From the NCBI GenBank assembly GCA_002728755.1, contig PBVT01000085.1, positions 114,226 to 178,225 on the forward strand: DNA of 64,000 nucleotides, given 5' to 3'. Of the stretch, positions 1 to 21,372 are shown piece by piece. The DNA is from Myxococcales bacterium. GTDB lineage: Bacteria; Myxococcota_A; UBA9042; UBA3505. The first letter of the stretch is position 1; each line of letters starts with the position of its first letter. The notes under the pieces were generated by a model. That model was not told the origin of the DNA and did not search any database. It saw only the letters and a program-made list of their open reading frames with translations. The translations under genes were made by a program, and so were the position numbers.

Positions 1-3000
1 CTGCGTACTCCAGAACGAAGTCAGCGATCTTATTGAGAGTGGAGTAGTCCTGTAGACTCAGATCTTCTACCGGAGCGATGCCGTAGGTCTCTCGCACGGT
101 GGCAAAGAGCTCGGCTTGCTTGACGGTGTCGATACCAAGATCGGCTTCGAGGTCCAGGTCTGGCTCCAGCATATCTACCGGATACCCAGTCTGCTCCGAG
201 ACGAGATCAAGGAGAGTCTTGAGAATGGCAGGCTTTTGAAGATCGGTCGCAGGGGCCGCCGCTTCTTTTTTCTCTGCAGGAGCTGGCGGTGTGGGAGCGG
301 TATCGGCCGCAGGGGTTCCCGAATATTCGATCACGAAATCTGTGATCCTATTCAGGGTTGAGTAGTCCTGCAGACGAAGATCTTCGACGGGCGCGATACC
401 GTATTTCTCGCGTACGGCGGCGAACAACTCGGCCTGTTTCACAGTGTCGATACCAAGGTCCGCTTCTAGATCGAGATCGGGTTCCAGCATATCGACGGGG
501 TACCCGGTCTGTTCTGCGACCATCTCGAGTAGGGCTTTAAGGATCGCGCCACGGTCCTCCGTAGCAGCCGGCGCGGGGGCCGTTGCGGCGGCCTTTGGAG
601 CGGCAGCCACAGGAGCCGTTTCCGCTGGGGTGGATGCTGCTGCAGAGTCGGTGCCACTTCGCTCAAGAACGAAGTCAGCGATCTTATTCAGAGTCGCGTA
701 GTCCGAGAGCTGAAGGTCTTCCACCGGGGCGATATTGTATTTCTCACGTACGGACGCGAAGAGCTCGGCCTGTTTGACGGTATCAATACCCAGGTCGGCT
801 TCGAGATCCAGATCGGGAGCTAGCATATCCACGGGATAACCAGACTGTTCCGCCACCATTGTGAGAAGGGATTTCAACACCTCGTCTCGATCGAGAGAAC
901 CCGTGGGAGCTGGCGCTACATGCGCCTTTACTTCGACCTTCGGGGCCGGAGTTTCCGTTGGTGTTTGTCCCGAACCGGTCCCCGAACGCTCTACGACGAA
1001 GTCGGCGATTTTGTTCAAGGTGGCGTAATCGGAGAGTTGAAGATCTTCGACCGGGGCGATGTTGAAGGCCTCTCGTACAGACGCGAAGAGCTCGGCCTGT
1101 TTCACGGTATCAATACCCAGATCGGCTTCGAGATCCAGATCAGGTGCGAGCATATCGACGGGGTAGCCAGTCTGTTCGGACACCATATTAAGGAGCGTTT
1201 TAACGATGCCGTCACGGTCCTGGGCGGCCGGTTTGGCCGTAGGTGCTGGGCTGGCCTTTGCCTTCGGGGGCTCCGTCGCTGCGGGTGCAGGTGCGGGTGC
1301 GGCTGCGCCATCACCCGAGTTGGCCCGCGCCATTACAAAGTCGGCGATTTTATCCAGGGTGGCGTAATCGGAGAGTTGGAGGTCTTCGACCGGAGCAATA
1401 TTGTACGCCTCACGTACGGACGCGAAGAGTTCGGCCTGCTTCACGGTGTCGATCCCCAGATCTGCTTCAAGGTCGAGGTCCGGTGCGAGCATGTCCACAG
1501 GGTAGCCTGTCTGCTCAGACACCAATTGAAGTAGAGCCTGTACTACGGCACCACGTTCCAGATCTGCTGTCGGTGCTTTGGTGGGGGCCGGGGTAGCTTT
1601 GGCCTCAGGCTGTACGGCAGGGGCCACCATCTCTGTCGCACCTTCTGCCACGCGAGCTTTAAGGATACGTCCATCAAGGAACACTTCGCCAGCTGTCGCA
1701 TCGACGCATTCGGCAAGGAAGCGTTGATAGAGTCCTGGGTTGGCGATGGTCTGCGGGCCGTCGGCGATCTTTTCGAAACCGACCAGGGCGATCTGGCTAC
1801 CAAAACCGGCACCAAGACGTACACCAAAACGGGCGTCGAAAGCACCCCCGCTGGAAAGGTTCAAATCGCTGAAGGCTGAATCCAGATCGTTGGCGTTCGC
1901 AAGTGGTGGAACGGTTCCGAACTGAAGAATCTTTACGAGGAGGCCGTCTTCAATACCAGCACCCATTGGATGACCCGTATAGCCCTTTACATTGGCAACA
2001 CAGACTCCACCGGACGCGTTCCCGAAGGCTCTACGTAGGCTTTGCGCTTCGGCTTCAGACGATCCGCCACGCGCTGGGGTATAGGTCTCATGGGACATGA
2101 AGACGGTGTTCGGGGCCATCTCTGCGATGGGGACACCGGCGCTCTGCGACATATCTTCGACCAGCTCTGTGAACAGCTCGGAGATATGCTCCACATCCAG
2201 GCGCGTTCCGTGGAAGGCACTATTACCAAACCGGTCTGCCAGAATGCGTACCAACGGTGTTACGCCACGAGATTCGGCGAGACCATCGGCTTCGAGTACG
2301 AGCCCTACGGCTCCCGCGCCGACGATCATACCATTGCGTTGGGTACCAAATGGGACGGCGGCCTGGGTGACATCGGATTCGATTGTTGCGGCACCTGCGG
2401 CCAGGAAGCCACTTCCGAACCATGGCATCAAGCGATCACTGGAGACATTATCTGCGCCGACTACGATGACTCGTTTACAGCGACCCAATCGAATCCAGTC
2501 GGAGGCGATACCCAGGGCCTGTGTCGTACTCGCGCAGGCGGCGTTCACATGTGTGGATGGCCCTTTCAATCCGAGGAACTGCGCCAGCTGGGTATGACCC
2601 ATCGCGAGAATTCGGAACAAGAAACGTCGATCAAAGGTGTACTCGGATTCTTTCGATGCTGCTTTCGCTGTCTCCAATTGGGAGCTCAATGCGTCGAGTG
2701 TTTCCTTGGAGGCTCCGGCCTTTTCTGCCGTTTCCAACGCGATTTGGAGGGATTCCACTCGGGCCTGGCTTTCGCGGTCCGCTACAATGGAGTCGTATTC
2801 TTCGGTGAAATTTTCAATGCCTGGGAATGCCGATGCGAAGATCACACCGGTGTCTTTACCGATGCTTTCTGGAATCTGGAAACCGCTCGGTAATTTTTTC
2901 CCAGTCGTCGTTACCTGGTACCGGGGCACAACAGGAATATGTGCGTCTTTCAACGCCTCCATCGCCGCAGCGATGACCATTCGAGTCGTGATGTCGAGAG

Positions 3001-6000
3001 CCTGGTTGAAGCTTTTTGGTACTTCATAATCTCCGACGACGTCGAGCTTACCCGGACGTCCACCCAGCTGGATGATACCTTCCGTCTTTGTAATTCGTTC
3101 GAAACTTCCCGCGCCAGACGCGTTCTTTACGAGCCGTTCGATGTTTTTACCGAGCATCTTTTCGATGAGCTGGCCGGGGAGGCTTTCGATTCGATTCTCA
3201 CCATTCAGAAGACGGCTGAAGTTGTCGTCTGCGAACATTTCGTAATCGGCGCCTGGTAGACCAATCGATGCACCCGTAATGCAAACGGGCGATACTGCGG
3301 ATGGTGTGTGTTCTACGGTAGCGGAGCTGGCTTTGCCGGGGCTGGCCTGCGCTTCTATGGCCTGTGCCACGGAAGGCGCGCCGAGACCTGCAGCGTACAG
3401 GCTCACCAGCGCATTTCGGAAACTAGCCAGATCCCCCTGTTTGGGGTGATTGGTCGAAACGGCCAGAACATTTTTCCCCAGGGTATCCAGAATAAGACGG
3501 CTTAGCGCGGACTTGGGTCCAACCTCGACAAAGGTGTCGTACCCATCTCGCTTCATATTCTGCACGATTCCGATCCAGTTTACGGAAGCAGCGACTTGTT
3601 TACCGAGGAGATCGCGAATGGTGTCTTCGGCGCCGTCGCCTGTTGGGTATTCTTCGGCGGTTACATCCGAATAGATGGGGAAGTTCGGTTTGCTGACGTC
3701 CAATTTTCCTAATAGAGCGCGCAGAGGCCGGGTCGCAGGTTCCACAATCGGGCTATGGAACGCATGGCTTACGGGTAGGGGAATCGCGCGAATGCCCAGC
3801 TCGTTGCACCGCTCCACAAGCTTGTCTACGGCCGCCGACTCACCGGCTGCTACGGTCTGATTCGGACTATTTCGATTTGCTGCGATCAACATGCCGTCGA
3901 TCTCGTCGATGAGCTTATCGACCTCTTTGGCGTCGGCGATGATCGAAGCCATTTTGCCTGGATCATCGATCTTTACATTGGCCATCTCACGGGCGCGGCT
4001 GGTTACAACTCGGACCGTATCCTTCAAGTCGAGAACGCCGGCTGCGGCGACAGCGCCGTATTCTCCAAGACTATGGCCGGCCACACCGTGAGGGCTAATA
4101 CCATAGGCCTTCACAAGCTCTGTAAGCGCCAGATCCATGGCGAGGACACCAGGCTGGGTATAGACCGTATAGCGTAGTTTCTTTTCGCAGAGGTCTTTGT
4201 CGAGTCGCCCAAACATAATGTCAGACAATCGCTCTTCAATTGTGTCTTCCATCAAGGTGTCGATGTCATCGATGACCTTCTGCGCTACAGAATACTTCTT
4301 ACACAGCTCGGCACCCATACCGACGTATTGCGAACCCTGGCCCGGATAGACGAACGCTACTTTTCCAGGGGCGCCATTCCATAGAGCGACATCTTGTCCC
4401 TGGAACCTTTCACCACGAGCCACGAGGGCTTTGGCGCGACGAAGGCGAGTAGCAGCTTCCGCGAGATCGTTACCACCAACGACGAGCCGCCATTCACCCA
4501 CCAGACTGCCAGGGGCTACTGGTGCCGGGTTTTTTGTTGGCGAAGTTTCTAGTTGCGCCAGCGCTGCGTCGACTTGTTTTTCGATCTCAGCGGTGGTTTT
4601 CCCTGCGAAGCCAAGCATGACACCGGGAATCGTATCCACGGAGAGCTGACTATTCGAAATTTCGATGGGAGCATCTTGGCTTGCTTTTGTAGCCATACGG
4701 CCATTCTCCTCAGACCATGCTGCGAGACCAACGGGCTCTAGAGCCTCAACGTCTCCTGCAAGGTCCTCTGGTGCTTCACCGAGGACCATGTGAAAGTTTG
4801 TTCCACCAAATCCAAAGGCGCTGAGACCAACGATCCGTGACTGATCTCCACGGTTCCAGGGTTCGGGCTCTAGTTGGAGTCGGAACGGAGTATTTTCGAA
4901 ACCAATCTTTGGATTGGGAGTCTGGACATTAATGGTGGGCAGCTTTGTATTATGTTCCAGACAAAGCAGTGCCTTAAACATACCTGCTGCGCCAGCACCG
5001 GCCTTCAAATGGCCGATATTGCTCTTCACGGATCCCAGAGACACGCTCTGTAGCGCCGCACCGGCCTCGGCGAAGGTCGCGGACAGAACACCTGCTTCCA
5101 CGGCGTCACCGACAGTTGTACCCGTACCATGGGCCTCTAAGAGTCCAACTTCCGATGGTGATACACCAGCATCTTTATAGGCTCGTTGTACGGCAAGGCG
5201 TTGTCCTTCTGGGTTCGGAGCCGTAATCCCTTTGCCCTTTCCATCCGAGCTGGCGCCAATGCCGAGAATGACACCGAGCACACGGTCGCCATCTCGACGT
5301 GCATCGCTAAGACGTTTAAGGACGAACGCTGCGCCACCTTCACCCATGACGAAGCCCGACGCTCGACTATCAAAGGGGAAGCTTCCATCTGCACTCAAGG
5401 CTCCAATGCGGCAGAATTTAGCGAACATTTCGGGGCCATTGCAGCGATCTACACCGCCAGCGATGGCCATGTCACAATCGTGATGTTGCAACATGCGTCT
5501 GGCTGTCATGAATGTAGCCAGACTTGAAGCGCAAGCGGCATCGCATGCGAAATTGGGCCCGCGTAGGTTTAATACGTTGGCGATTCGACCAGCGAACACG
5601 TTGGCCAACTCACCAGGCATACTGTCTTCGTTAATCGGAGCGTGGTGTGCATCACCAAAATTCTGGCGAGATTCATGGATAATCCGCTCTTGTATCTCCG
5701 GTGATAGTTCCCGGAACGAAGGACTCTCTCGAAGCGCATTACCGACAAAAGGCCAGTTCATCGTCATGGATGTTCGTACGTGTTGTTCGCCACCCATACT
5801 ATTTCCAATTACGACGCCTACGCGCGTGCGATCGAAATCGTTGTCGAGACCGTAGCCGGCATCTTCCAGGGCATCGGCGGCCGCCGTTACAATCCAGCGT
5901 TGACCGTGATCCATACGGTCCGCAACCTTGGGCGGAATACGAAATCGCAGGCTTTGAAACTCAAAGTCCCGTATGAAGCTACCAATTCGGCTATAGATAC

Positions 6001-6205
6001 CAAATGGGCTGGCAGGATCGGGATCATAGAAATCATCGATGCGCCAACGGTCCTCTGGGACTTCGGTGATTGCACTCTGACTTTGCAGCAGAAACTGTGC
6101 AAAGGTCTTCGTGTTCAACCCGCCTGGCAATACGCAGGCTTTACCTATAATCGCGATGGCCTGGTCGTCCCAATCAGCTACTTTTGTATTTGTATTGGTC
6201 TTCAT
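1..6205 (-). CDS. Giant PfaA-like type I polyketide/fatty-acid synthase, KS-AT-KS-ACPx5(+); 3' end lies beyond the left window edge
   Basis: Absent from the ORF track because the frame is open to the edge. Manual translation from ATG 6205 (in-frame stop upstream at 6233-6235) gives MKTNTNTKVADWDDQAIAIIGKACVLPGG. KS1 motifs: DAACASSL (Cys 5531-5533), EAHGTGT, KSNIGHLK, SAFGFGGTNFH. AT motifs: FVYPGQGSQ, GHSLG (4064-4078), HAFH. KS2 motifs: NAACAS (2528-2545), SHETYT, TGHPMG. Five ACP repeats follow in the same frame down to position 2. Confidence 0.95.
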   Translation of the reverse strand, partial: MKTNTNTKVADWDDQAIAIIGKACVLPGGLNTKTFAQFLLQSQSAITEVPEDRWRIDDFYDPDPASPFGIYSRIGSFIRDFEFQSLRFRIPPKVADRMDHGQRWIVTAAADALEDAGYGLDNDFDRTRVGVVIGNSMGGEQHVRTSMTMNWPFVGNALRESPSFRELSPEIQERIIHESRQNFGDAHHAPINEDSMPGELANVFAGRIANVLNLRGPNFACDAACASSLATFMTARRMLQHHDCDMAIAGGVDRCNGPEMFAKFCRIGALSADGSFPFDSRASGFVMGEGGAAFVLKRLSDARRDGDRVLGVILGIGASSDGKGKGITAPNPEGQRLAVQRAYKDAGVSPSEVGLLEAHGTGTTVGDAVEAGVLSATFAEAGAALQSVSLGSVKSNIGHLKAGAGAAGMFKALLCLEHNTKLPTINVQTPNPKIGFENTPFRLQLEPEPWNRGDQSRIVGLSAFGFGGTNFHMVLGEAPEDLAGDVEALEPVGLAAWSEENGRMATKASQDAPIEISNSQLSVDTIPGVMLGFAGKTTAEIEKQVDAALAQLETSPTKNPAPVAPGSLVGEWRLVVGGNDLAEAATRLRRAKALVARGERFQGQDVALWNGAPGKVAFVYPGQGSQYVGMGAELCKKYSVAQKVIDDIDTLMEDTIEERLSDIMFGRLDKDLCEKKLRYTVYTQPGVLAMDLALTELVKAYGISPHGVAGHSLGEYGAVAAAGVLDLKDTVRVVTSRAREMANVKIDDPGKMASIIADAKEVDKLIDEIDGMLIAANRNSPNQTVAAGESAAVDKLVERCNELGIRAIPLPVSHAFHSPIVEPATRPLRALLGKLDVSKPNFPIYSDVTAEEYPTGDGAEDTIRDLLGKQVAASVNWIGIVQNMKRDGYDTFVEVGPKSALSRLILDTLGKNVLAVSTNHPKQGDLASFRNALVSLYAAGLGAPSVAQAIEAQASPGKASSATVEHTPSAVSPVCITGASIGLPGADYEMFADDNFSRLLNGENRIESLPGQLIEKMLGKNIERLVKNASGAGSFERITKTEGIIQLGGRPGKLDVVGDYEVPKSFNQALDITTRMVIAAAMEALKDAHIPVVPRYQVTTTGKKLPSGFQIPESIGKDTGVIFASAFPGIENFTEEYDSIVADRESQARVESLQIALETAEKAGASKETLDALSSQLETAKAASKESEYTFDRRFLFRILAMGHTQLAQFLGLKGPSTHVNAACASTTQALGIASDWIRLGRCKRVIVVGADNVSSDRLMPWFGSGFLAAGAATIESDVTQAAVPFGTQRNGMIVGAGAVGLVLEADGLAESRGVTPLVRILADRFGNSAFHGTRLDVEHISELFTELVEDMSQSAGVPIAEMAPNTVFMSHETYTPARGGSSEAEAQSLRRAFGNASGGVCVANVKGYTGHPMGAGIEDGLLVKILQFGTVPPLANANDLDSAFSDLNLSSGGAFDARFGVRLGAGFGSQIALVGFEKIADGPQTIANPGLYQRFLAECVDATAGEVFLDGRILKARVAEGATEMVAPAVQPEAKATPAPTKAPTADLERGAVVQALLQLVSEQTGYPVDMLAPDLDLEADLGIDTVKQAELFASVREAYNIAPVEDLQLSDYATLDKIADFVMARANSGDGAAAPAPAPAATEPPKAKASPAPTAKPAAQDRDGIVKTLLNMVSEQTGYPVDMLAPDLDLEADLGIDTVKQAELFASVREAFNIAPVEDLQLSDYATLNKIADFVVERSGTGSGQTPTETPAPKVEVKAHVAPAPTGSLDRDEVLKSLLTMVAEQSGYPVDMLAPDLDLEADLGIDTVKQAELFASVREKYNIAPVEDLQLSDYATLNKIADFVLERSGTDSAAASTPAETAPVAAAPKAAATAPAPAATEDRGAILKALLEMVAEQTGYPVDMLEPDLDLEADLGIDTVKQAELFAAVREKYGIAPVEDLRLQDYSTLNRITDFVIEYSGTPAADTAPTPPAPAEKKEAAAPATDLQKPAILKTLLDLVSEQTGYPVDMLEPDLDLEADLGIDTVKQAELFATVRETYGIAPVEDLSLQDYSTLNKIADFVLEYA
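2..1560 (-). repeat. Five tandem ACP-domain repeats (~320-340 bp period) separated by Ala/Pro-rich linkers
   Basis: Recurring motif EQTGYPxDMLxPDLDLEADLGIDTVKQAELFAxVRE. The DT-motif Thr codons are at 1445-1447, 1106-1108, 779-781, 443-445 and 125-127. Copies differ at synonymous positions. Confidence 0.95.
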
Positions 6206-6280
6206 CAAAAATCTCGAATTGAATTCAAGGAATCAACGGAAGGTACGGATGTGCCGTTTTCGTGAGTCGGCCCGCGCATA

Positions 6281-6513: not shown

Positions 6514-7527
6514 CTAAATGAGCCGGATCAGGTTTACGGGCTGCGGAGCAACACGAAGATTGATCTCGTCACGGTTACCGGCGGCATCGCCAGCAACCTG
6601 GTACGGGGTTGGTTCCGAGAACTCGATTTTAACAGACTCGGCCACGAAATCGGTGACGGAGTTACCGTGGTAGGTCCCTTTCCATAGGGACGGCAGCATT
6701 GTAAGCGACTTAGCGACATTGGCCGTTCCGACACGGAGTTGGAACATGGAAGGATACTTGCGGGCGTGCGGAAGCATCTTCATGCCATAGCCGTAGTACG
6801 GGGTCGTTCCAGCGGCCACCAATGAGACCGGACCTTCGTAAACGACGTCACCATGATCCACAAACTCTTGTACGAGCCCATTTTCACCAAGAATGAACGC
6901 CTGGTCGCCGGTGTTTGTAATACGGGCGGACAATTTACTGCCCTTGAAGGCCTGACTACAACGACGAGGTATGGTGCGGGAGAAGGCGGCCAGAAAATAT
7001 CCGACGACATTCTTGACCAATGGGCCAGCGTATTGGCCTGCCAAACCATCTTTCATAGAATTATAATCGTGGAGTACCTGTGCATCTAGACCGGCTCCAG
7101 CGAAGGGAGACAAGACACCGTCATCGTCGCATAGGAGCGAGATGGGCATGTCGTCTCGTTGCTGCTGGGTCAGGAAGCTGCGCAGATCGTCTTCCGGCGA
7201 TGAGGAGGATACCAGATGCGCCAATGCATTACCGGTACCGAGCCGTAGCATGCCAATTCGTGGCCAGGGGCGTCCTTCCGCGATCTCTTCAAGGCTGTTG
7301 ATGAGACCCACAAAGGTGCCGTCACCACCGCCAGCAAATACGTTTTCATAGCCTTTATCCAGGATATCACGTACGGCCTCTTTGGATTCCTCCGGAGACT
7401 GGGTGGCGTATACCTGGTGCTCAGGAACCCATTCGTGGATCTGCTCCATGACGTGCTTGTTCACACGGCGAGCATTTTGGTTGATGAGCAGGGCGACTTG
7501 TTGTCGTTGGTGCATAGAAACATCCAT
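6514..7527 (-). CDS. Diacylglycerol/lipid kinase family protein (DgkB/YegS/BmrU-like)
   Basis: Motifs INQNA, AGGGDGT, LRLGTGNALA, GAGLDA, YYGYGM, YQVAGD. Start is uncertain (ATG 7527 or 7515). Confidence 0.9.
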   Translation of the reverse strand: MDVSMHQRQQVALLINQNARRVNKHVMEQIHEWVPEHQVYATQSPEESKEAVRDILDKGYENVFAGGGDGTFVGLINSLEEIAEGRPWPRIGMLRLGTGNALAHLVSSSSPEDDLRSFLTQQQRDDMPISLLCDDDGVLSPFAGAGLDAQVLHDYNSMKDGLAGQYAGPLVKNVVGYFLAAFSRTIPRRCSQAFKGSKLSARITNTGDQAFILGENGLVQEFVDHGDVVYEGPVSLVAAGTTPYYGYGMKMLPHARKYPSMFQLRVGTANVAKSLTMLPSLWKGTYHGNSVTDFVAESVKIEFSEPTPYQVAGDAAGNRDEINLRVAPQPVNLIRLI

Positions 7528-7575
7528 AAGCAAAAACAGAATCTACCGTAGACCGATAGATTTCCGCGCTATAGT

Positions 7576-12943: not shown

Positions 12944-15900
12944 CTAGGACGGCCTGTTTTTGTAGCGCCTGGAGTTGGTAGCACGGAATGCCAGCAGGGC
13001 GAGGATAACCCATACGAGATTTGTGGGGTGCGAGCCGGACTGGCTGCAGCCAGAGGGTATTGGTCCGGATCGGAAGGCCTGGCTAGTCTGGGTTGTTTCC
13101 GTTTCTTCTGGATCGTCTGGGGGAATACGGTTCCAGCGATAGGATTCGACCGAGGGTAATTCCAGTGGATCGGGAATATACGGAATCGACCAATCTCCCG
13201 AGGGGCCCTTCCAGCCAGCGGGGGAGTAGTTGTAGGGATGAGATAACCCCAAGGGCGCTCCATCCTGTAGGACGGTAAAGTGCATCAGCACCGCTTCGAC
13301 GGGGTGTGTATATTTGGAGGCGTACCATCCACGCCCAACATAGCGAAGCTGGTCGATGAGTAGAGGTTCGCCGCCAGAGATATCCAGGTTGAGGCCGGAG
13401 CCAATCAGATTTCCCGCGCTGTCTCTGGGTTGTACAATAAGATTAAGAACCGGACCCGCTCGGTAGATGAAGACCGTTGAGTGATCGAGAGATATCGCGG
13501 GGGGGATGGCCGGTTCGATGACCTGAACTATAGTGGAAATACCGGTTGGGGTTTCGCCGATCAGGAGCTCACAGGTGAAGTTACCGGTCTCCGTTCCCGC
13601 CTTTAATAGCGAACGGAAGATCCATGTGGCGGGAAGGTGGTATTCTCGGACGTCGACTTCGTGAATTCCTCCGCCACATTGGAGTGAGACGTCATACATA
13701 CCCGGATCACCGATCGTCACCCCGTTCTGGGTCTGGAGTAGCATAGCCACCGGAATCACATCAGAACCATCCCCTATCAATGAAGAGACTGGTACCAGCG
13801 AAGAAGTGGTGAGGTCGAGTTGGTCCAGCAGATCCTCGGGAGTCTCCGGAGGTTCCAACAGATGCTCGTCGACGTGAAAGATACCGAGCCCATTTTCGTT
13901 CAGATCTACGACAAACGGGACGGTAGGTGGGGAATTGAATCGAAATGCTAGTCGAGGGCCGACGACATCGAGATGGTAGAAGACAGGGCTGCCATTATCA
14001 GAAGCGATATGTTCGACAATGCCGCTCGCCTGGCTCGGACATCCTTCTCCCTCGAGGATGAGCTCCAGGTGGACCTCCCCCATGGCAAAGGGCATGAGAT
14101 CATTCCATCCGCTGACCATATGGGTGCGTTCGGAGATCACCGAACATCCTCTCTGGGTGATTCCCAGCGAAGCTTCCAAATCGGGTCCATCGCCTATCTC
14201 GATGGTTACCTCGGTACCTTCCTCACCAAACTCCACAGGAACTTGAATCAGGTCGTTCTCAAGGAGAAGAGACTCTCCCTGGCTTAAAACCCCGTGTACC
14301 GTGATATTGGGAAGTGGTGCCCCATCGACTCCGCTGCCCTGGATATACACAAACCCCTCAAAGCCTTGCGCGGGTCTGGGGGGCTCCAGCCACACATTGA
14401 GACTTGTATCTGCGCTGATACCGCGAGCACGGGGCCGGATTGGGAGTGGTGTACCACCAACGTCTATGCGCACGACAAAGTGTTGGTCCGGTCCGGTTCC
14501 AGGACGTTCAAACGTCGCAATATGGAATCCCGATGTCGCTTCGCAAGGAGCGTCAAAGGTCTGCGTTGATGATTCGGTGGTGAGTTCAATTGTGACCGAT
14601 TCCGATGAGCAACCCGGCTCACCAGAGGGGCCTTCGACCGGGGCAATCTGCAATGTGCTGGTCGTGGCGTCCGTTTCACTCAACATGAGCCACTCGGGTT
14701 CAACGATTTGGATCTGCTGATCCAGTTCGACGTTGGAGACGGATTGGATATATCCAGATGGCCAGTTCACTGTGATGTCTACGGGCTCGTCACATGTTCC
14801 TGTACCGACATGAACCCATCCCCGGAAGCATCCCTGTGCCATCGCGCAGTCCTTAAGAAAGCGGTTCCATTCTTGGTCTCCACAGCGAACTACGACGGAA
14901 CCTCCCGAGGCACGCGGGATGGCGACCGATGGCTTGAGTTCGATGCTCAGTCCATGACCTACGGGATCGAGTAGATTTGCAAGAAGGAAGGGATCTCCAT
15001 GGCGTGGCCAGGCGATGAAGTCGACACGGCCATCTCCATCGGGATCGATAGGTTCCAGTGCGCGTATCAGCTCAATCTTCAGGAAATTATGGCTGTCAGG
15101 ATGTAGGGTGTACTCACCTGCATCATTACCCCGGTAGACGAGTAGGCCCTCGGCCATAGCATCAGGGAGACCGATGACCTGCGAATTCACACCGAAGCCG
15201 GGCACGATCAGGTCGGTGATCCCATCAAGATCCAGATCGGCAAAGATGGGCGCCCATTTGGTTCGGTACGCATTTCTATCGAAGGGCGTCTCCGTTCCTG
15301 CGCCCCCGGGCACGACCGTGTACTGATTGGTGGTGACATCGTACTCGTGGACGATGCTGGGGCCGATGGACGTATGGTACACTCGAGGCGCATGTCCTGG
15401 AGCAGGTACGGTGATATCGAGACCCATGCCATGCCGATCGACATCGTCTGGGATCAACGTCGTAATGATATTCTCTATGGAGAAACCAGTCGTATCGCTG
15501 GTGGCTTTGAGAATGACATCTTTATATTCGTTATAACCGTAATCCTCCGATATCCACACTTCGGCTCCTAGCTCGTTGTCGGTGTCGAACAGGAATAATG
15601 TATTGGCGAACGGCGTCGTTGATGGGAGCGCCTGAATATCGAAAAAGCGACCCTCGCCATCATTTATATACAAGAGGAGGTCGTGCGGAGGGGTGGCGAG
15701 ATCAAAAGGTATACCGTCGGAAAGGACACGTTGTGGCGCAGCGAGGATATCCGGGTGGCCGTCGTGGTTCGCATCCCACATGACGATCCCGTATGCGTCG
15801 ACCGCTTGTGTTGTGGCGATCCGTGTCCGGGTTACGTCATCAAAGTCTCCATCGCTTCGTCCCTTCAGATAACGGAAAGGACGGCCAGGGGAAGGGGTTG

Positions 15901-16288
15901 GAACCAGCACATCGTCTAGTCCGTCGTTGTCCAGATCTGCGATGATTGCGGCGACTACATTGGGAATCATCTCGTGACTACCCGAGATGTGGGTACCACT
16001 GCTTACATGGATGGTGTGACTGGTTTCGAGCTGAAAGGCGGTGGCCGACATGGGGATAGGAACGACAGGTTTTAGGACGTCGATGGAGTTGGCCAGCACT
16101 CGGTAGAGGCGTAGATCGCCACCGGATGCCGACCCTTTTACTCCCAATTGCATGTCGAGGGAGGGCCAGTCCGAGATCTGGCGTTTTCCGAGAGGAGAGC
16201 CCCATCCAGCCTGTGCGGTTCCTCCATGCCAGACTAGCCCGAGAAGGATCCCGAGGACTGGTACCATGATCCGGCGACCGGGGATCAT
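12944..16288 (-). CDS. FG-GAP/ASPIC-UnbV (CRTAC1-like) surface protein with Ig-like domains and MYXO-CTERM-like tail (paralog 1)
   Basis: DLDNDGLDD, DANHDGHPD and DLDLDGITD Ca-binding repeats; UnbV-like VHVGTG...WPSG; PRDSAGN Ig-like motif; tail SGCSQSG-TM-RR. Start moved to ATG 16288 (signal peptide, directly after the upstream stop). Confidence 0.8.
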   Translation of the reverse strand: MIPGRRIMVPVLGILLGLVWHGGTAQAGWGSPLGKRQISDWPSLDMQLGVKGSASGGDLRLYRVLANSIDVLKPVVPIPMSATAFQLETSHTIHVSSGTHISGSHEMIPNVVAAIIADLDNDGLDDVLVPTPSPGRPFRYLKGRSDGDFDDVTRTRIATTQAVDAYGIVMWDANHDGHPDILAAPQRVLSDGIPFDLATPPHDLLLYINDGEGRFFDIQALPSTTPFANTLFLFDTDNELGAEVWISEDYGYNEYKDVILKATSDTTGFSIENIITTLIPDDVDRHGMGLDITVPAPGHAPRVYHTSIGPSIVHEYDVTTNQYTVVPGGAGTETPFDRNAYRTKWAPIFADLDLDGITDLIVPGFGVNSQVIGLPDAMAEGLLVYRGNDAGEYTLHPDSHNFLKIELIRALEPIDPDGDGRVDFIAWPRHGDPFLLANLLDPVGHGLSIELKPSVAIPRASGGSVVVRCGDQEWNRFLKDCAMAQGCFRGWVHVGTGTCDEPVDITVNWPSGYIQSVSNVELDQQIQIVEPEWLMLSETDATTSTLQIAPVEGPSGEPGCSSESVTIELTTESSTQTFDAPCEATSGFHIATFERPGTGPDQHFVVRIDVGGTPLPIRPRARGISADTSLNVWLEPPRPAQGFEGFVYIQGSGVDGAPLPNITVHGVLSQGESLLLENDLIQVPVEFGEEGTEVTIEIGDGPDLEASLGITQRGCSVISERTHMVSGWNDLMPFAMGEVHLELILEGEGCPSQASGIVEHIASDNGSPVFYHLDVVGPRLAFRFNSPPTVPFVVDLNENGLGIFHVDEHLLEPPETPEDLLDQLDLTTSSLVPVSSLIGDGSDVIPVAMLLQTQNGVTIGDPGMYDVSLQCGGGIHEVDVREYHLPATWIFRSLLKAGTETGNFTCELLIGETPTGISTIVQVIEPAIPPAISLDHSTVFIYRAGPVLNLIVQPRDSAGNLIGSGLNLDISGGEPLLIDQLRYVGRGWYASKYTHPVEAVLMHFTVLQDGAPLGLSHPYNYSPAGWKGPSGDWSIPYIPDPLELPSVESYRWNRIPPDDPEETETTQTSQAFRSGPIPSGCSQSGSHPTNLVWVILALLAFRATNSRRYKNRPS

Positions 16289-16289
16289 T

Positions 16290-17828
16290 CTACCAACCTG
16301 CGCCGTTGCAGAAGAGATCGGGGTGACAGATGAAGCCAGGAGAGGGGATCCCTGGAAGATCGGGTGGCGCAAGGCAACAGGCCTCTTCTCCGAAGTCAGC
16401 CAGGCATTCGGATGTTGCGTCAGGATCCACGTCCCCATTTGGCAATAGATCGGGTTCACAAATTCGGGTGCAGATCATATCGAACGCGAGGGATTCACAG
16501 GTATAGCCTTCGGTGCATGCCAGGCCTTCACAGAAGCCACCTGGCTCAACGATTTCGATGGGTCCCGGGTCTTCAACGATGTCTTCGGCGGTATCTGTTG
16601 TTTCTTCCGTATCGCTGGGATCGATATCGTCTTCCGTATCGCTAATGTCGATGAATCCACTATCCGTACCGTCCGACGTATCGGATACGTCCGTGGAGAC
16701 ACTATCGGAGATGTCCGAAGCGTCGGATCCAGCATCGGAACCGACGTCGGTGGGACCACTGTCGGTATGAGAGATTGGTCCCAGATCCAGTATGGGAAGC
16801 TCGGGTAGGCCATGGTGTGCAAGTACACCCGTGAGTTCATACTTTCCGGAAAGCAGGTTTCCTCCCAGGCCGAGCACGCTCTGTTGATGAACGGTAATGC
16901 CGTGAAACGCATCCAAGGTGGGAACATCTCCCTCGTCGAATGTGACACCAAAGTCAGAGCTTCTTGCAATGTAGCCGTTTCGGCCTGCGACCCAGAGTCC
17001 GCCTTCCGGATCAAAGGTAATGCCCATGAGCCCAGGAAGAGGCTCTGCGGTCTCGATTCGTTTCAACTCGGACCCGTCGTATCGGAAAATCGCGCCTTGT
17101 GCGGCACCACCGACCGCATAGACGTTACCGTCTGGCCCACCGACGACCGTAACGATATTGTCTGAGAACCCCGAAGGTTGGAAATTCGCACCGGACTCGT
17201 CGATCACAAGGAACTTTCCTTGTTGCCCCACGATGTAGATCGTCCCGTCGTCATCTCCCCATACTTTCAAGAAGGCTCCGCCTCCAGAATCTGGAAGCTC
17301 GACCTCCTGGGGTTCACCGTTGATAATTCGCCATGCCATAGGTGGCACATTCGGTAATTTGGGCCGACCACCAACGACCCATACATCATCCGATGATGCG
17401 CCCCAAACTCCAGCGAGCGCTGCTGTTGTTCCAAGGTCTACCCGGGTCCATTCTCCATTCAGATAATGAAGTGCTGCCCCACCTTCACCCACTGCCCAGA
17501 CGTCATCGGGTGTGATGCCATGCACCCACCAGAGCATGTGGTAGTGAGGGACATCGTCTCGAGTCCAGACGCCATCGCGTAGCCATAGGACGGCCGCATT
17601 ACCGGGCGTACCGCCCACGACGATAAGCTCATCACCAAACGACCAGGCGGCGTTCAGTGTACCATCAACGAGGTCTTCCGCTGTCAGGGTCCATGGGTTG
17701 ACTTCAAGAAATGGATTTGTCGTGGGGGGCGTCCCACCACCACATCCAAAACTCGCCAGGAGCCAGAGCAGTAGCAGATGAAAACGTCCCAGTTTTTTCG
17801 GGACTCTTGTGTGTCCAACCTCAGTCAT
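16290..17828 (-). CDS. Lipoprotein with beta-propeller (DDVWAVG repeats), Asp/Ser/Thr-rich linker and Cys-rich C-terminus
   Basis: Lipobox SFGC; repeats VHGITPDDVWAVG and VWGASSDDVWVVG; terminal Cys cluster. Confidence 0.75.
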   Translation of the reverse strand: MTEVGHTRVPKKLGRFHLLLLWLLASFGCGGGTPPTTNPFLEVNPWTLTAEDLVDGTLNAAWSFGDELIVVGGTPGNAAVLWLRDGVWTRDDVPHYHMLWWVHGITPDDVWAVGEGGAALHYLNGEWTRVDLGTTAALAGVWGASSDDVWVVGGRPKLPNVPPMAWRIINGEPQEVELPDSGGGAFLKVWGDDDGTIYIVGQQGKFLVIDESGANFQPSGFSDNIVTVVGGPDGNVYAVGGAAQGAIFRYDGSELKRIETAEPLPGLMGITFDPEGGLWVAGRNGYIARSSDFGVTFDEGDVPTLDAFHGITVHQQSVLGLGGNLLSGKYELTGVLAHHGLPELPILDLGPISHTDSGPTDVGSDAGSDASDISDSVSTDVSDTSDGTDSGFIDISDTEDDIDPSDTEETTDTAEDIVEDPGPIEIVEPGGFCEGLACTEGYTCESLAFDMICTRICEPDLLPNGDVDPDATSECLADFGEEACCLAPPDLPGIPSPGFICHPDLFCNGAGW

Positions 17829-17859: not shown

Positions 17860-20800
17860 TCAAGAAACCCGCTTTAGCGTGGGACGTAGTCGCGTCACTC
17901 CACACCAGAAAAGCAGTATAAAAAAGATGGTTCCGGTGGGAGACGGCCCTGTGGTGCAGCCAGAGGCCTGCTCCGGCATAGGGGCGAGCTTAATAGCCGA
18001 TGAGCCCTGGTGCGGCTCTTCCTCTTCCTCTGCTTCTGGAGGAATGGGGGGATAGGAGATCCCAATCGGGTTTAAGGCTTTGCCCTCAGGGAAAAAGATA
18101 TCCGGGACTTCATACTCCGGTTTTTCCACCGGCCAATATCGAAATCCTCCGGCGGGGTAGGTTAAGAAGTCGGTGCCGACCCCGGTATCTACACCATTCG
18201 CGTGAATCTGTATTTGGGCCTGTCCGAAGCCTTCCGGGGGCGTATACAAGCCAACGAAGAGACCGCGCCCCGCGTATGTCAGCGGCGTAGTGACTTCGCC
18301 AGTGACCGCAAAGATAGAGATATCGGTCGACGAACCAATCAGATTTCCCGCAGAGTCTCTGGGAAATACGATCACCGACATTGCACCTCCACCACTGGGG
18401 GACACCAATAGGAGTGTATTGTCTGCGTCCACCGTGGGGCTTTCGAGGGCCGCATCCACTTGAATATAGCCGGTGATACCGGTGGGTTGGCCTGCGATCA
18501 TGATTTCACAAAGATGATCGCCGGGCTCGGTTCCAGCCCGAACAAATAGTCGAGCCATGGTCAATGCCGGCAAGTGGTAGGAGTAGGGGTAGACCTGTTC
18601 AACGCCACCTTCGCATTCAACAGTAATGTTGTAGTTCTCCACCTGTGTAATCAACTTGTCGTCCATCGTTCGAACGACAAATCCCACAGGAGCGATGTCG
18701 CGACCGTCGGCCTGGATAAAGGCCATCGGATATAGCCACCCACCCTCGGGGTTCAATTCTTCGAGGAGCTGTTCGGGTGTTTCTGGGAACGGAAGAAGAT
18801 GTTGGTCGAAGGTCAAGACTCCCAGACCACCAGTTGTCATATCCAGGTGAAGTTCCTGCTCTTTGAGGCTCTCGACGAGGACCTTGATATAGGAATCGCG
18901 TAGCCGAATCTCCGGTGTGTCGGCGCCGCTACCATCGGTGTAGGAGCCGGTGGCTCCGAGTTCGAAGTCGTTGGTTGGGCAGCGTGGTCCCTCCATTATG
19001 AATTGGAAGATCAGCTGTTCCTCTACGTTGTCCGCCGCGGGGTCGCCTTCTGGGTCTTGCACCGACTGAATTCGGGTCTTTACGATTTCACAGGGGGTAA
19101 CGGTATTTCCGACGACGCTATCAAAATAATCCACATCGCCACGGTGAACTCGTACGTGCACCGGCGTGTCGATGGCGGGTAAGTCCACCGGCAGCATATA
19201 AACGTTGGGTTCCAGCTCTTGCAGGTCGCCCGTTGCGACAGCTCCCATCACTGTGATCTCGGGGGGATCTCCTTCGATGTCGTTATCCATTTTAAGCCAG
19301 ACATACCCAGGGGTTTCGGCTGGAAGGCCGGAGGGAGCGACTTGTATATTTGCTCGAGGAGCCTCCAGTGGAACCTGGAGACGAATTCGATGAGAAAAGA
19401 CAACTCCGCCGACCTCTGCAGCGATTCCAAAATAGGAACCGGGTTCAATGTCTGGCCACGGAACAGAACCAATATGGATATCCAACTCTGTGTCGCAGGG
19501 AGCCGGCAGTACGGTAGTCTCCGTCGCTGTGATCACATGTAAGTTTACGGGTTCCTCGCTGCAACCGGGTTCGTCATCGTTTTGTTGTATGGGAGCGATA
19601 TGAATCGTCAGGTCTTCGGTAGAGTGCGGTTCGGATACAACCTTGAACCAATCGGGTTCGGTGATCGTTACACCCTGGTCGACTGGTAGCTGGTACACAG
19701 TCTGTATGTACCCAGATGGCCACTCTACGACGGTGGTTAACGGGCCCTCACAATCGCCCACTCCCACATGAACCATGCCTCGAAAACAACCCTGGCTCAT
19801 GACGCAATCTTTAATATACCGCGTCCAGGTGGAATCCTGTGCGTTCTCACCGCCGGGTACCAGCTCGTTACCGCAAGTAACATGAACGGTACCTCCGGTG
19901 GCTCGGGGGGCGGATACGGTGCTATCGAGCGTGATGGATATACCGTGGCCGAGAGGAGGCAGGGTGTTCATCATAAGCAGCGGATCGCCGGCTACCGTCC
20001 AACCGATTACGTCCATTCGTCCGTCATTGTCCATGTCCAGAGGTTCCACAGCACGAATCCGCTTGGTCTTCAGATAGCCGTGGGTGTCTTCTCCTGCCCG
20101 AAATTTTCCATCTTCTTCAAAACGGAACATCAAAAGCCCTTCGGTCAGGGCATCGGGAAGACCAATAACTGCTGCGCCAACACCTCGACCCGCTTCCAAC
20201 AAGTCGGTACGGCCGTCGAGATCGAGATCTACAAATACGGGCCCCCATTTGGTTCGGTAGGCGTTTTTGTCAAAGGTGCTCTGGCTTCCGTACCCACCCG
20301 AGACGATATTGAATTTGCCAGTCTCAGGGTCACGCTCGTGTGCGACGCCGCTGCCGATGGATGTATGGTGAACGAAAAGCGGAGCGCCCGGATAGAGATG
20401 GGCGATGTCAAAGCCCATGCCCATTCGACCTAGATCCGAATTCATCATCCCCGGGTAGATATCTTCGATGATTGGTAGACCACCGGGGTTTCTGTCTATG
20501 GTCTTCAGGTTATTGTCCCGCTGGTCGCCAAAGCCCAGATCATTGGAGCTCCACGCCTCGGCCAGATTGTCGCCATCCATATCAAAGAATACGATCGCGT
20601 TTGGGTAATTCGAGACCGTGGGAAGGGTGACGAAGTCTCGAAAGAACCCATGTCCGTCGTTGATAAATAAGACGTAGGTCTGGGGCGGTGTGACAGTTCC
20701 AAAGGAGATGCCCGATTCCAAATCCCCCAGCCCCATAGCGACCACATCAGGGTGTCCGTCGGCGTTGGCGTCCCATAGGGCGATACCATGGTAATTACGT

Positions 20801-21312
20801 CGTGGAACGGAAGCTACCCGTGCGATCGTTACGTCCTTGAAGCCGCCTTCTGGCAGTCCTTTCAGGTATACTATCGGGATGCGGTTTTTCGGTCCCGGTA
20901 CTAGAAGATCCAGGATACCATCCCCGTCTATATCTTCCGCGATTACGGTCATGACCGTGTCATCGACAGCGTCGGAGGCGAGGGCCACTGGGTAATCCAT
21001 TGGGACTTCATGGATTGCGATCGTTTCAAACGCTTCGCCCGTAGCTGGTACCGGGAGGATCGGTGCCATTACCTCCACCTGGTTTGGTGTCATACGGTAC
21101 AGTCGAATCCCTTCGCCAGCTCGTTGAGGTCCGATACCCATTTGCCAATTCGGGTGACCGAACCAGATCGAAGGGGGAAGAGTTCGAATCGAGAAGGGGT
21201 CTTCCCATGTACCGGCTTCTACCCTTTGCGCTGGCAAGAAAAGGAGTAAGCCAGCAAGGATTGCAACGACGATGCGAGCAGAAATGGACTTGTGGGGATT
21301 CAGATCGCGCAT
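17860..21312 (-). CDS. FG-GAP/ASPIC-UnbV surface protein with Ig-like domains and MYXO-CTERM-like tail (paralog 2)
   Basis: DIDGDGILD, DANADGHPD, DLDLDGRTD, DMDNDGRMD; VHVGVG...WPSG; tail ASGCTTG-TM-basic. Start probably ATG 21312 (track uses 21363). Confidence 0.8.
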   Translation of the reverse strand: MRDLNPHKSISARIVVAILAGLLLFLPAQRVEAGTWEDPFSIRTLPPSIWFGHPNWQMGIGPQRAGEGIRLYRMTPNQVEVMAPILPVPATGEAFETIAIHEVPMDYPVALASDAVDDTVMTVIAEDIDGDGILDLLVPGPKNRIPIVYLKGLPEGGFKDVTIARVASVPRRNYHGIALWDANADGHPDVVAMGLGDLESGISFGTVTPPQTYVLFINDGHGFFRDFVTLPTVSNYPNAIVFFDMDGDNLAEAWSSNDLGFGDQRDNNLKTIDRNPGGLPIIEDIYPGMMNSDLGRMGMGFDIAHLYPGAPLFVHHTSIGSGVAHERDPETGKFNIVSGGYGSQSTFDKNAYRTKWGPVFVDLDLDGRTDLLEAGRGVGAAVIGLPDALTEGLLMFRFEEDGKFRAGEDTHGYLKTKRIRAVEPLDMDNDGRMDVIGWTVAGDPLLMMNTLPPLGHGISITLDSTVSAPRATGGTVHVTCGNELVPGGENAQDSTWTRYIKDCVMSQGCFRGMVHVGVGDCEGPLTTVVEWPSGYIQTVYQLPVDQGVTITEPDWFKVVSEPHSTEDLTIHIAPIQQNDDEPGCSEEPVNLHVITATETTVLPAPCDTELDIHIGSVPWPDIEPGSYFGIAAEVGGVVFSHRIRLQVPLEAPRANIQVAPSGLPAETPGYVWLKMDNDIEGDPPEITVMGAVATGDLQELEPNVYMLPVDLPAIDTPVHVRVHRGDVDYFDSVVGNTVTPCEIVKTRIQSVQDPEGDPAADNVEEQLIFQFIMEGPRCPTNDFELGATGSYTDGSGADTPEIRLRDSYIKVLVESLKEQELHLDMTTGGLGVLTFDQHLLPFPETPEQLLEELNPEGGWLYPMAFIQADGRDIAPVGFVVRTMDDKLITQVENYNITVECEGGVEQVYPYSYHLPALTMARLFVRAGTEPGDHLCEIMIAGQPTGITGYIQVDAALESPTVDADNTLLLVSPSGGGAMSVIVFPRDSAGNLIGSSTDISIFAVTGEVTTPLTYAGRGLFVGLYTPPEGFGQAQIQIHANGVDTGVGTDFLTYPAGGFRYWPVEKPEYEVPDIFFPEGKALNPIGISYPPIPPEAEEEEEPHQGSSAIKLAPMPEQASGCTTGPSPTGTIFFILLFWCGVTRLRPTLKRVS

Positions 21313-21372
21313 ATAGCCGTCATGGTTGCCGTGTTTGTGCCCAACAAAACCTACCAACTGCAACCGATAGAT

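Follow-up and report, generated by a model that had tools for sequence, protein, structure and literature searches.

The 64,000-nucleotide stretch of DNA from a Myxococcales bacterium that was analysed here (the window; G000:C81:114226-178225, where G000 is the organism's own genome) carries at its low edge most of the gene for a large multidomain lipid synthase, in which a second ketosynthase (KS2) lies between the acyltransferase (AT) and a row of acyl carrier protein (ACP) domains. By its domain order, the synthase is a further member of a published yet uncharacterised family, the Type R secondary-lipid synthases, as that family is described in the defining passages of Shulse & Allen (2011; PLoS One 6:e20146; PMC3098273). 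On balance, we favour a reading in which the protein would be an iterative, malonyl-fed synthase whose two ketosynthase (KS) domains, both active, would divide the elongation cycles between them, and which would be served by a phosphopantetheinyl transferase (PPTase) and a carboxylase of its own.

The open reading frame (ORF) of the synthase occupies positions 2..6208 of the minus strand, where it is translated without a stop from a TTG codon and runs off the low edge of the window. The full ORF on the contig (L004:7903-16434) encodes 2843 residues from the TTG codon or 2842 residues from the ATG at position 6205, one codon in; the ATG is more probable as the start codon, given that the copy of the protein in the database (P0003, 100% identical) has 2842 residues. 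Pfam and NCBIfam profile matches give the complete order as KS1-AT-KS2-ACPx5-KR-DH, where KR is a ketoreductase and DH a dehydratase. The KS-AT-KS-ACPn architecture put forward in the original prediction was recovered in Pfam as KS1, the AT, a second ketoacyl-synt match and five PP-binding domains, so that the carrier array, predicted without a number, has exactly five members, all of them within the window. The best NCBIfam match of KS1 is TIGR02813 (PfaA), and the AT contains the motif HAFH, which we take to be a sign of malonyl specificity. The C-terminal part, after the carriers, comprises the KR and then a polyketide synthase (PKS)-type dehydratase (PKS_DH_N plus PS-DH; Pfam). Of the downstream KR, DH and enoyl reductase (ER) functions that had been suggested as worth looking for, the first two are therefore present and the third is not: the 10 kb to each side of the synthase contain no gene for an ER or a thioesterase and none of the PfaB/C/D type.

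According to the family description in PMC3098273, a Type R locus has one pfaA homologue of the order KS-MAT-CLF-ACP(3-6)-KR, where CLF stands for chain-length factor, with a PPTase gene downstream and an unknown product. The named holders are Koribacter, Solibacter, Elusimicrobium and Roseiflexus, and in Koribacter an acetyl-CoA carboxylase gene lies between the pfaA homologue and the PPTase gene (Shulse & Allen, 2011). At the present locus KS-AT-KS2-ACPx5-KR(-DH) is encoded in one ORF and a PPTase gene follows directly downstream, in agreement with that description. The architecture is thus unusual, as predicted, when set against canonical PfaA, but it is not a one-off, as it matches the published Type R order and is shared by thousands of proteins in the database. 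Searches of open-access text for exact phrases yielded no paper on the KS-AT-KS architecture besides Shulse & Allen (2011), which PMC13291983 merely cites, and none that describes the FabF-like catalytic KS2, the threonine carriers or the upstream acyl-CoA dehydrogenase (ACAD) discussed below.

KS2 retains the full set of residues expected of a condensing enzyme. The Cys of NAACAST (window 2534-2536; Cys266 in KS2 numbering), the His of MSHETYT (2090-2092; His414) and the Lys and second His of VKGYTGHPM (1985-1987, Lys449; 1970-1972, His454) were all checked at the codon level and align, by HMMER, onto the catalytic residues of FabF structures. None of the four varies in an alignment of KS2 domains drawn from many phyla (70 of 70). 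The motifs NAACAS, SHETYT and TGHPMG were found where they had been reported, and the earlier view that KS2 is not a Cys-less CLF holds, because the Cys, both His and the Lys are kept throughout these homologues. In a CLF the active-site Cys is gone and, as a rule, so is the His pair. KS2 has lost neither.

An AlphaFold2 model of KS2 built on the 70-sequence alignment has a mean predicted local distance difference test score (pLDDT) of 93.5 and a predicted TM-score (pTM) of 0.92, and its top Foldseek matches are all FabF/KAS II enzymes (TM-scores of 0.85-0.89, normalised to the target; 18-21% identity). When scanned alone against Pfam, KS2 matches only the N-terminal ketoacyl-synt domain (E = 6.5e-16). 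Among NCBIfam models the FabF model TIGR03150 ranks first, with a score of 106.6 bits where the cut-off is 493.75, and the top 60 hits of a profile search against the PDB are all FabF, FabB, KasA or type II KS chains, with no PKS or PfaC chain among them. As judged from its sequence and predicted structure, KS2 is FabF-like without being a FabF: the fold and the catalytic triad are those of the enzyme, and the score is far below the cut-off. The long helical insertion that had been proposed appears in the model as two long helices forming a hairpin (Table 1). This hairpin is variable; it is absent from the homologue in the relative G030, and the stretch is skipped in the matches of many relatives from the same phylum.

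Several features set the KS2 family apart from FabF, namely the sequence HETYTPARGGS in place of HGTGT, extra N-terminal strands, the hairpin and a change in the gate loop. The Phe of the GFGG loop of FabF is a gatekeeper; in KS2 it aligns with Ala508 (window 1808-1810), and this Ala is invariant in the 70-sequence alignment. Such invariant departures could point to a KS2 that performs one special step, either priming (decarboxylation of malonyl-carrier and the first condensation) or a terminal chain-joining or branching reaction. The lack of a separate loading domain in the synthase would suit such a role, and priming in particular would fit a genome in which no convincing FabH was found, the sole FabH-like ORF being a weak match, far below the cut-off, next to an acetolactate-synthase-like gene. 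We nevertheless consider a special step of this kind unlikely, since the catalytic set of KS2 is that of an elongating KS, no evidence was found that favours a special step over ordinary decarboxylative elongation, and no second enzyme that activates an acyl donor is linked to the gene.

The relationship between the two KS domains was assessed with a tree of 64 sequences (quick search, LG+G4 model, with branch support from the Shimodaira-Hasegawa-like approximate likelihood-ratio test, SH-aLRT, only). It contained 26 KS1 domains, 26 KS2 domains, six FabF-like ORFs from relatives, and the KS and CLF domains of two myxobacterial pfa1-pfa2-pfa3 clusters, which serve as controls that were recognised by their architecture and are not characterised enzymes. 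These canonical clusters lie at L142 (G156:C70:7500-27499), in a genome of the same class, and at L141 (G083:C4:31000-50999), in one of the same phylum, and encode in turn an ER, a KS-AT-ACP-KR-DH protein and a KS-CLF-AT-DH-DH-AGPAT protein. In the tree, all KS2 domains come together in one clade with a support of 100; its stem is very long, at 2.22, and a split with an SH-aLRT of 98 leaves it on the same side as the FabF-like sequences. KS1 falls on the opposite side, with Pfa2-KS, Pfa3-KS and Pfa3-CLF, and the strong divergence between KS1 and KS2 noted in the original prediction is in keeping with this placement. KS1 belongs to one group (SH-aLRT 94) with the KS1 domains of 25 genes of the same architecture from Acidobacteriota, Chloroflexota and other phyla, the named Type R strains lying outside these data. 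The subtrees of KS1 and KS2 agree for the most part, with most subgroups common to both, and the two domains have therefore evolved together as a pair.

A clustering of KS2 with PfaC-type domains had been named as the outcome that would count against a special KS2, and here the result is mixed. The approximately unbiased (AU) test rejects a grouping of KS2 with Pfa3-KS (p-AU = 0.009) but not one with Pfa3-CLF (p-AU = 0.10; lnL 18.9 worse), KS2 and CLF both being long branches. For this reason a FabF origin of KS2 is not claimed as proven, and a shared ancestry of KS2 and CLF is possible. The same result, together with the CLF label given to this domain in the family description (PMC3098273), is what speaks for KS2 as a non-condensing, CLF-like structural partner of KS1 that would set the chain length. 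This we regard as very unlikely: the Cys motif is missing from the CLF domains of the Pfa3 controls, whereas every aligned KS2 keeps it along with the other catalytic residues, and the best tree and all profile searches place KS2 with FabF-type enzymes.

The carriers of the synthase are unusual at the attachment position. All five read DLGIDTVKQAE, and although each matches PF00550, the Ser that usually stands at the start of helix II is Thr in every copy. HMMER aligns this Thr onto the phosphopantetheine-bearing Ser of solved carriers, a position that is printed as X in chain 8xqw_J, and the canonical Pfa2 controls have Ser at the same place (DLGIDSIKRVE). The substitution extends across the family, with Thr in 634 of the 636 carrier motifs of the 120 homologues listed. 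In the main ORFs of the 81 loci that were compared, the position is occupied by Thr 214 times, by Ser three times and by Asp and Ala once each; nine truncated ORFs are without the motif. To our knowledge, all known carriers bear a phosphopantetheinylated Ser. No paper on Thr-linked phosphopantetheine was found, which is weak evidence of novelty because the searches were for exact words in open-access text only.

A PPTase gene overlaps the stop codon of the synthase gene on the same strand; it encodes an Sfp-type protein of 268 residues with 4PPT_N and ACPS domains. It is followed, again on the same strand, by a biotin carboxylase gene (504 residues) and then by a carboxyltransferase gene (687 residues, with an N-terminal biotinyl domain).

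Proteins with the same second KS are widespread. A database search with the KS2 region as query scored 7999 candidates, of which 3854 proteins reached E <= 0.001, and all of the 120 homologues listed carry KS2 at the same place, with 41-100% identity over about 500 residues or more. When a collection of species genomes was scanned with two KS2-specific peptides, F[VMI]SHETYTP and KG[YFL]TGHPM[GA], at least 600 stretches matched, and 600 of 600 were confirmed. The bacterial labels among the matches listed include Myxococcota, Chloroflexota, Acidobacteriota, Actinomycetota, Gemmatimonadales, Verrucomicrobiia and Dormiibacterota; archaeal metagenome-assembled genomes (MAGs) among them are labelled Thermoplasmatota, Heimdallarchaeota and Methanobacteriota. 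Full-length Type R genes occur on long archaeal MAG contigs at L061 (Thermoplasmatota, 143-kb contig) and L129 (Heimdallarchaeota). Short proteins with KS2 only are mostly fragments at contig ends, and a few on long contigs may be split genes or frameshifts. According to precomputed Pfam lists, the PPTase domain is fused to the C-terminus in four of the 120 listed homologues (confirmed for P0042), and PF27202.1 is given for many homologues and not for the protein of the window. Within the phylum of the window the synthase is present in 69 of 251 sampled genomes. Among the 31 closest genomes it occurs in four only, namely G000, G001, G018 and G030, and the KS2 of G001, a genome of the same genus, is 91% identical.

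Gene neighbourhoods were compared at 80 loci from named MAGs (L055-L134) and at the locus of the window. Of these loci, 65 have 2.5 kb or more of flank on the upstream side; in 38 of them the synthase gene is immediately preceded, on its own strand, by a gene of the ACAD family about 560 codons long (for example L094:5206-6885). In front of the ACAD gene there are often genes for the electron-transfer flavoprotein (ETF) subunits ETF-beta and ETF-alpha and for an Fe-S/CCG oxidoreductase. ETF genes occur in 16 of these 65 loci and the oxidoreductase in 14. By phylum label, the upstream ACAD is found in 15 of 16 loci from Acidobacteriota, nine of 15 from Chloroflexota, four of nine from Actinomycetota, two of seven from Myxococcota and none of three from Thermoplasmatota. 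Among NCBIfam models, the family-linked ACAD best matches AcrC, an ETF-dependent acryloyl-CoA reductase, although its 222.7 bits stay below the cut-off of 640. In much of the family, the ACAD/ETF pair could supply the enoyl reduction that the synthase lacks, or else act as a desaturase. Downstream, a separate PPTase gene is present in 33 of the 59 loci with at least 1.5 kb of flank and carboxylase genes in 18 of them. Rarer neighbours are wax ester synthase/diacylglycerol acyltransferase (WS/DGAT; six loci), a PfaD-type ER (five) and GNAT (four).

The G000 assembly, which is 93.4% complete in 133 contigs, was searched as a whole with profiles in six-frame translation. Matches to PF02801 (KS), PF00698 (AT) and PF00550 (five copies) occur in the synthase gene alone, PF00109 rises above noise in the synthase only, apart from three weak matches in ORFs of about 400 residues, and PF01648 is matched only in the adjoining PPTase gene. 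No FabD, FabF/B, free ACP, AcpS or PlsX was found in G000, and a homologue search of the tblastn type gave no match to PfaD, WS/DGAT or ETF-alpha. The synthase and its neighbour seem to be the sole KS/AT/ACP/PPTase set found in the genome, and because no other such gene was found the genome offers a clean natural background for the question of the product. It also contains a BamA-Skp-FabZ-LpxA-LpxB cluster (L036, G000:C123:1-6672) that includes its one FabZ; with enzymes of lipid A synthesis and no free ACP found, the cell is therefore a diderm without a detectable free ACP. The LpxA encoded there is an acyl-ACP-dependent enzyme.

These observations raise the question of whether the cell depends on the synthase as its main, or even its only, fatty-acid synthase (FAS) for de novo synthesis, with an ER acting in trans, and whether the synthase also provides the 3-hydroxyacyl-carrier for lipid A. 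Such a role is compatible with the mechanism that we favour. It would agree with the missing FAS components, with the presence of LpxA, LpxB, FabZ and BamA and with the co-located carboxylase; elsewhere in the family, a homologue is the only KS found in a Thermoplasmatota MAG, and many homologues have the ACAD/ETF set as a possible reductase. However, several findings speak against this role, which we consider improbable. The synthase is confined to four of the 31 relatives, no ER candidate is linked to it, and separate FabF-size ORFs coexist with the synthase in four of the five other Type R genomes checked, the exception being the Thermoplasmatota MAG. Moreover, PF02801 is without a match in nine of the 31 class relatives (G003, G005, G006, G012, G014, G015, G024, G026 and G027), several of which are 95-99% complete; in G003 a PP-binding match is absent as well, and PlsX was found in none of five genomes tested. 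Because these nine relatives are without any KS, the lineage seems to live on scavenged fatty acids. The loss of FAS II across the class resembles, without being identified with, the case of the Bradymonabacteria, for which loss of FabB/F and FabI/L is reported and scavenging of fatty acids from prey is proposed in the relevant part of PMC7460792. By homologues of GluRS, the nearest named sources to G000 are a 'Myxococcota bacterium' (59%) and a 'Deltaproteobacteria bacterium' (58%).

In the mechanism that we favour, the adjacent carboxylase would make malonyl-CoA, as the gene linkage suggests, and the single AT would, from the domain content, load malonyl units onto the five tandem carriers. 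Both KS domains, with their complete and conserved catalytic sets, would act as decarboxylative condensing enzymes. They may share the carriers, with each KS taking the rounds for a certain chain length or kind of intermediate, by analogy with the polyunsaturated fatty-acid (PUFA) synthases, in which the KS domains of PfaA and PfaC are believed to take different elongation rounds. The KR and DH would process each beta-keto group. Because there is no ER in the protein or within 10 kb of it, the product would be a long acyl chain that is unsaturated or hydroxylated, unless an ER acting in trans made it saturated. The cognate PPTase presumably modifies the Thr of the carriers.

A number of points weigh against this mechanism. 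Every step of it is read from sequence, and the five named Type R genomes lie outside the alignments. The chemistry of KS2 may differ from that of FabF because the gate Phe is replaced by an invariant Ala. The Thr carriers could be poorly modified, differently modified or not modified at all. The locus of the window is without the ACAD, ETF and Fe-S/CCG neighbours and without a thioesterase or other release enzyme, and no orthologue of the family-linked ACAD was found in G000, which has only generic ACADs with 28-37% identity. Finally, a fab operon could have been missed in an incomplete assembly. The relative G001 has a cluster of FabF-like (437 residues, below cut-off), FabZ-like and FabG genes with a weak ACP match on the same contig (L034, G001:C57:9000-14000), and this cluster is without a counterpart in G000 at the DNA or the protein level.

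A broader proposal joins several of these strands, and we put it forward only tentatively, as somewhat doubtful when taken as a whole. Across Type R, the carriers would bear phosphopantetheine on Thr and be modified by their own PPTase; KS2 would be an active, FabF-derived KS; in many lineages, ACAD/ETF would act as a reductase or desaturase on carrier-bound chains; and in this FAS-II-less myxobacterium of predatory type the carboxylase-synthase-PPTase module would be the only route to acyl chains. If this is true, the lipid synthase would be biochemically insulated from the ACP/AcpS system of its host, and a prosthetic group attached to Thr would represent a new form of a textbook modification. 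Among iterative enzymes of the PKS/FAS-like kind, the Type R synthases, uncharacterised in both product and mechanism, rank with the most widespread in bacteria of soil and sediment. A complete, FabF-like 'CLF', Thr carriers and ACAD/ETF as the commonest neighbour would turn a 'PUFA-like' annotation into testable biochemistry.

The coordinates of the synthase, its domains and the two genes nearest to it upstream are collected in Table 1.

Table 1. Positions of the synthase gene, its domains and residues, and upstream genes. Coordinates are those of the window unless a contig is named.
Feature	Position	Strand	Evidence
Synthase gene, N-terminal 2068 codons of 2842 aa	2..6205	-	ORF list, translation
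Synthase remainder (linker, KR, DH)	G000:C81:111902-114226, before window	-	Full ORF on contig
KS1, PfaA-type (DAACASS/EAHGTGT/KSNIGH)	4757..6163	-	Pfam PF00109, PF02801, PF16197; residues 16-484
AT (GHSLGE + HAFH)	3410..4354	-	PF00698 E 7e-49, residues 619-933; FabD model TIGR00128 E 3.5e-61
KS2, FabF-like, deeply diverged	1769..3286	-	Protein residues about 975-1480; Pfam, profile and structure matches
Helical hairpin inserted in KS2	2648..2818	-	DSSP on AlphaFold2 model, KS2 residues 172-204 + 209-228
Five tandem ACPs	about 1319-1555, 980-1216, 653-889, 317-553, 2-235 (span 2..1555)	-	PF00550, five stretches
Thr codons at attachment position	1445-1447, 1106-1108, 779-781, 443-445, 125-127	-	Codons checked
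YegS/DAG-kinase-like lipid kinase	6514..7533	-	PF00781, PF19279; TIGR00147 E 8.8e-15, below cut-off
B12-binding-type radical SAM protein, 742 aa	7692..9920	-	PF04055

The lipid kinase gene lies directly upstream of the synthase gene and does not count among the neighbours that recur across the 81 loci. For the radical SAM protein, NCBIfam gives weak matches, all below cut-off, to HpnJ, to P-methyltransferases and to TIGR04072 ('lipid biosynthesis B12/rSAM'). Both genes are at most candidate partners of the synthase. A chorismate synthase gene also lies upstream of the synthase in the window. Further away on the minus strand, positions 12944-16459 and 17860-21363 encode two paralogous proteins of about 1170 residues with FG-GAP/ASPIC-UnbV repeats, and between them is an ORF of 512 residues without a family match.

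Compared with FabF (KAS II; TIGR03150; PDB entries 1KAS, 2GQD and 4LS8), KS2 has the whole KAS II fold and the Cys-His-Lys-His set, as far as sequence and model indicate. It differs from FabF in having about 100 extra residues, including the 57-residue helical hairpin, in the HETYTPARGGS sequence and the gate Ala, and in residing inside a megasynthase.

The synthase shares KS1, AT, tandem ACPs, KR and DH, in the same order, with PfaA/Pfa2 (KS-AT-ACPn-KR-DH). However, it falls short of a canonical PfaA, scoring 861.6 bits with TIGR02813 against a cut-off of 1010.1, and no PfaB, PfaC or PfaD partners were found: the genome has no NMO match of the PfaD/FabK type above cut-off, no PfaD by tblastn and no other KS. 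PfaD_N matches are rare, occurring in six of 151 genomes, with one over the cut-off. In contrast to PfaC/Pfa3 (KS-CLF-AT-DH-DH), the second KS here lies in cis between the AT and the ACPs, is without a CLF partner and is not of the PfaC type. The use of two different KS domains in one iterative system is a likely functional parallel to the PUFA synthases.

A further likeness is to the enediyne PKS (PKSE), an iterative KS-AT-ACP-KR-DH-PPTase enzyme with one KS, one Ser-type ACP and no ER. On domain order alone, the two have in common an iterative KS-AT-ACP-KR-DH arrangement without an ER and a PPTase of their own, and the present synthase has two KS domains where the PKSE has one.

The closest comparison is with the Type R synthases themselves. 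Relative to the family description of Shulse & Allen (2011), the domain order is the same, a PPTase gene lies downstream and a carboxylase is linked, as in Koribacter. The present synthase differs in having a PKS-type DH after the KR, where that description gives no DH, and in its host, a Myxococcota lineage without FAS II, a phylum that the same description does not name for Type R. In addition, both carboxylase genes are linked at this locus, the domain that was called a CLF is here catalytically complete and, by its sequence, FabF-like, and the carriers have Thr.

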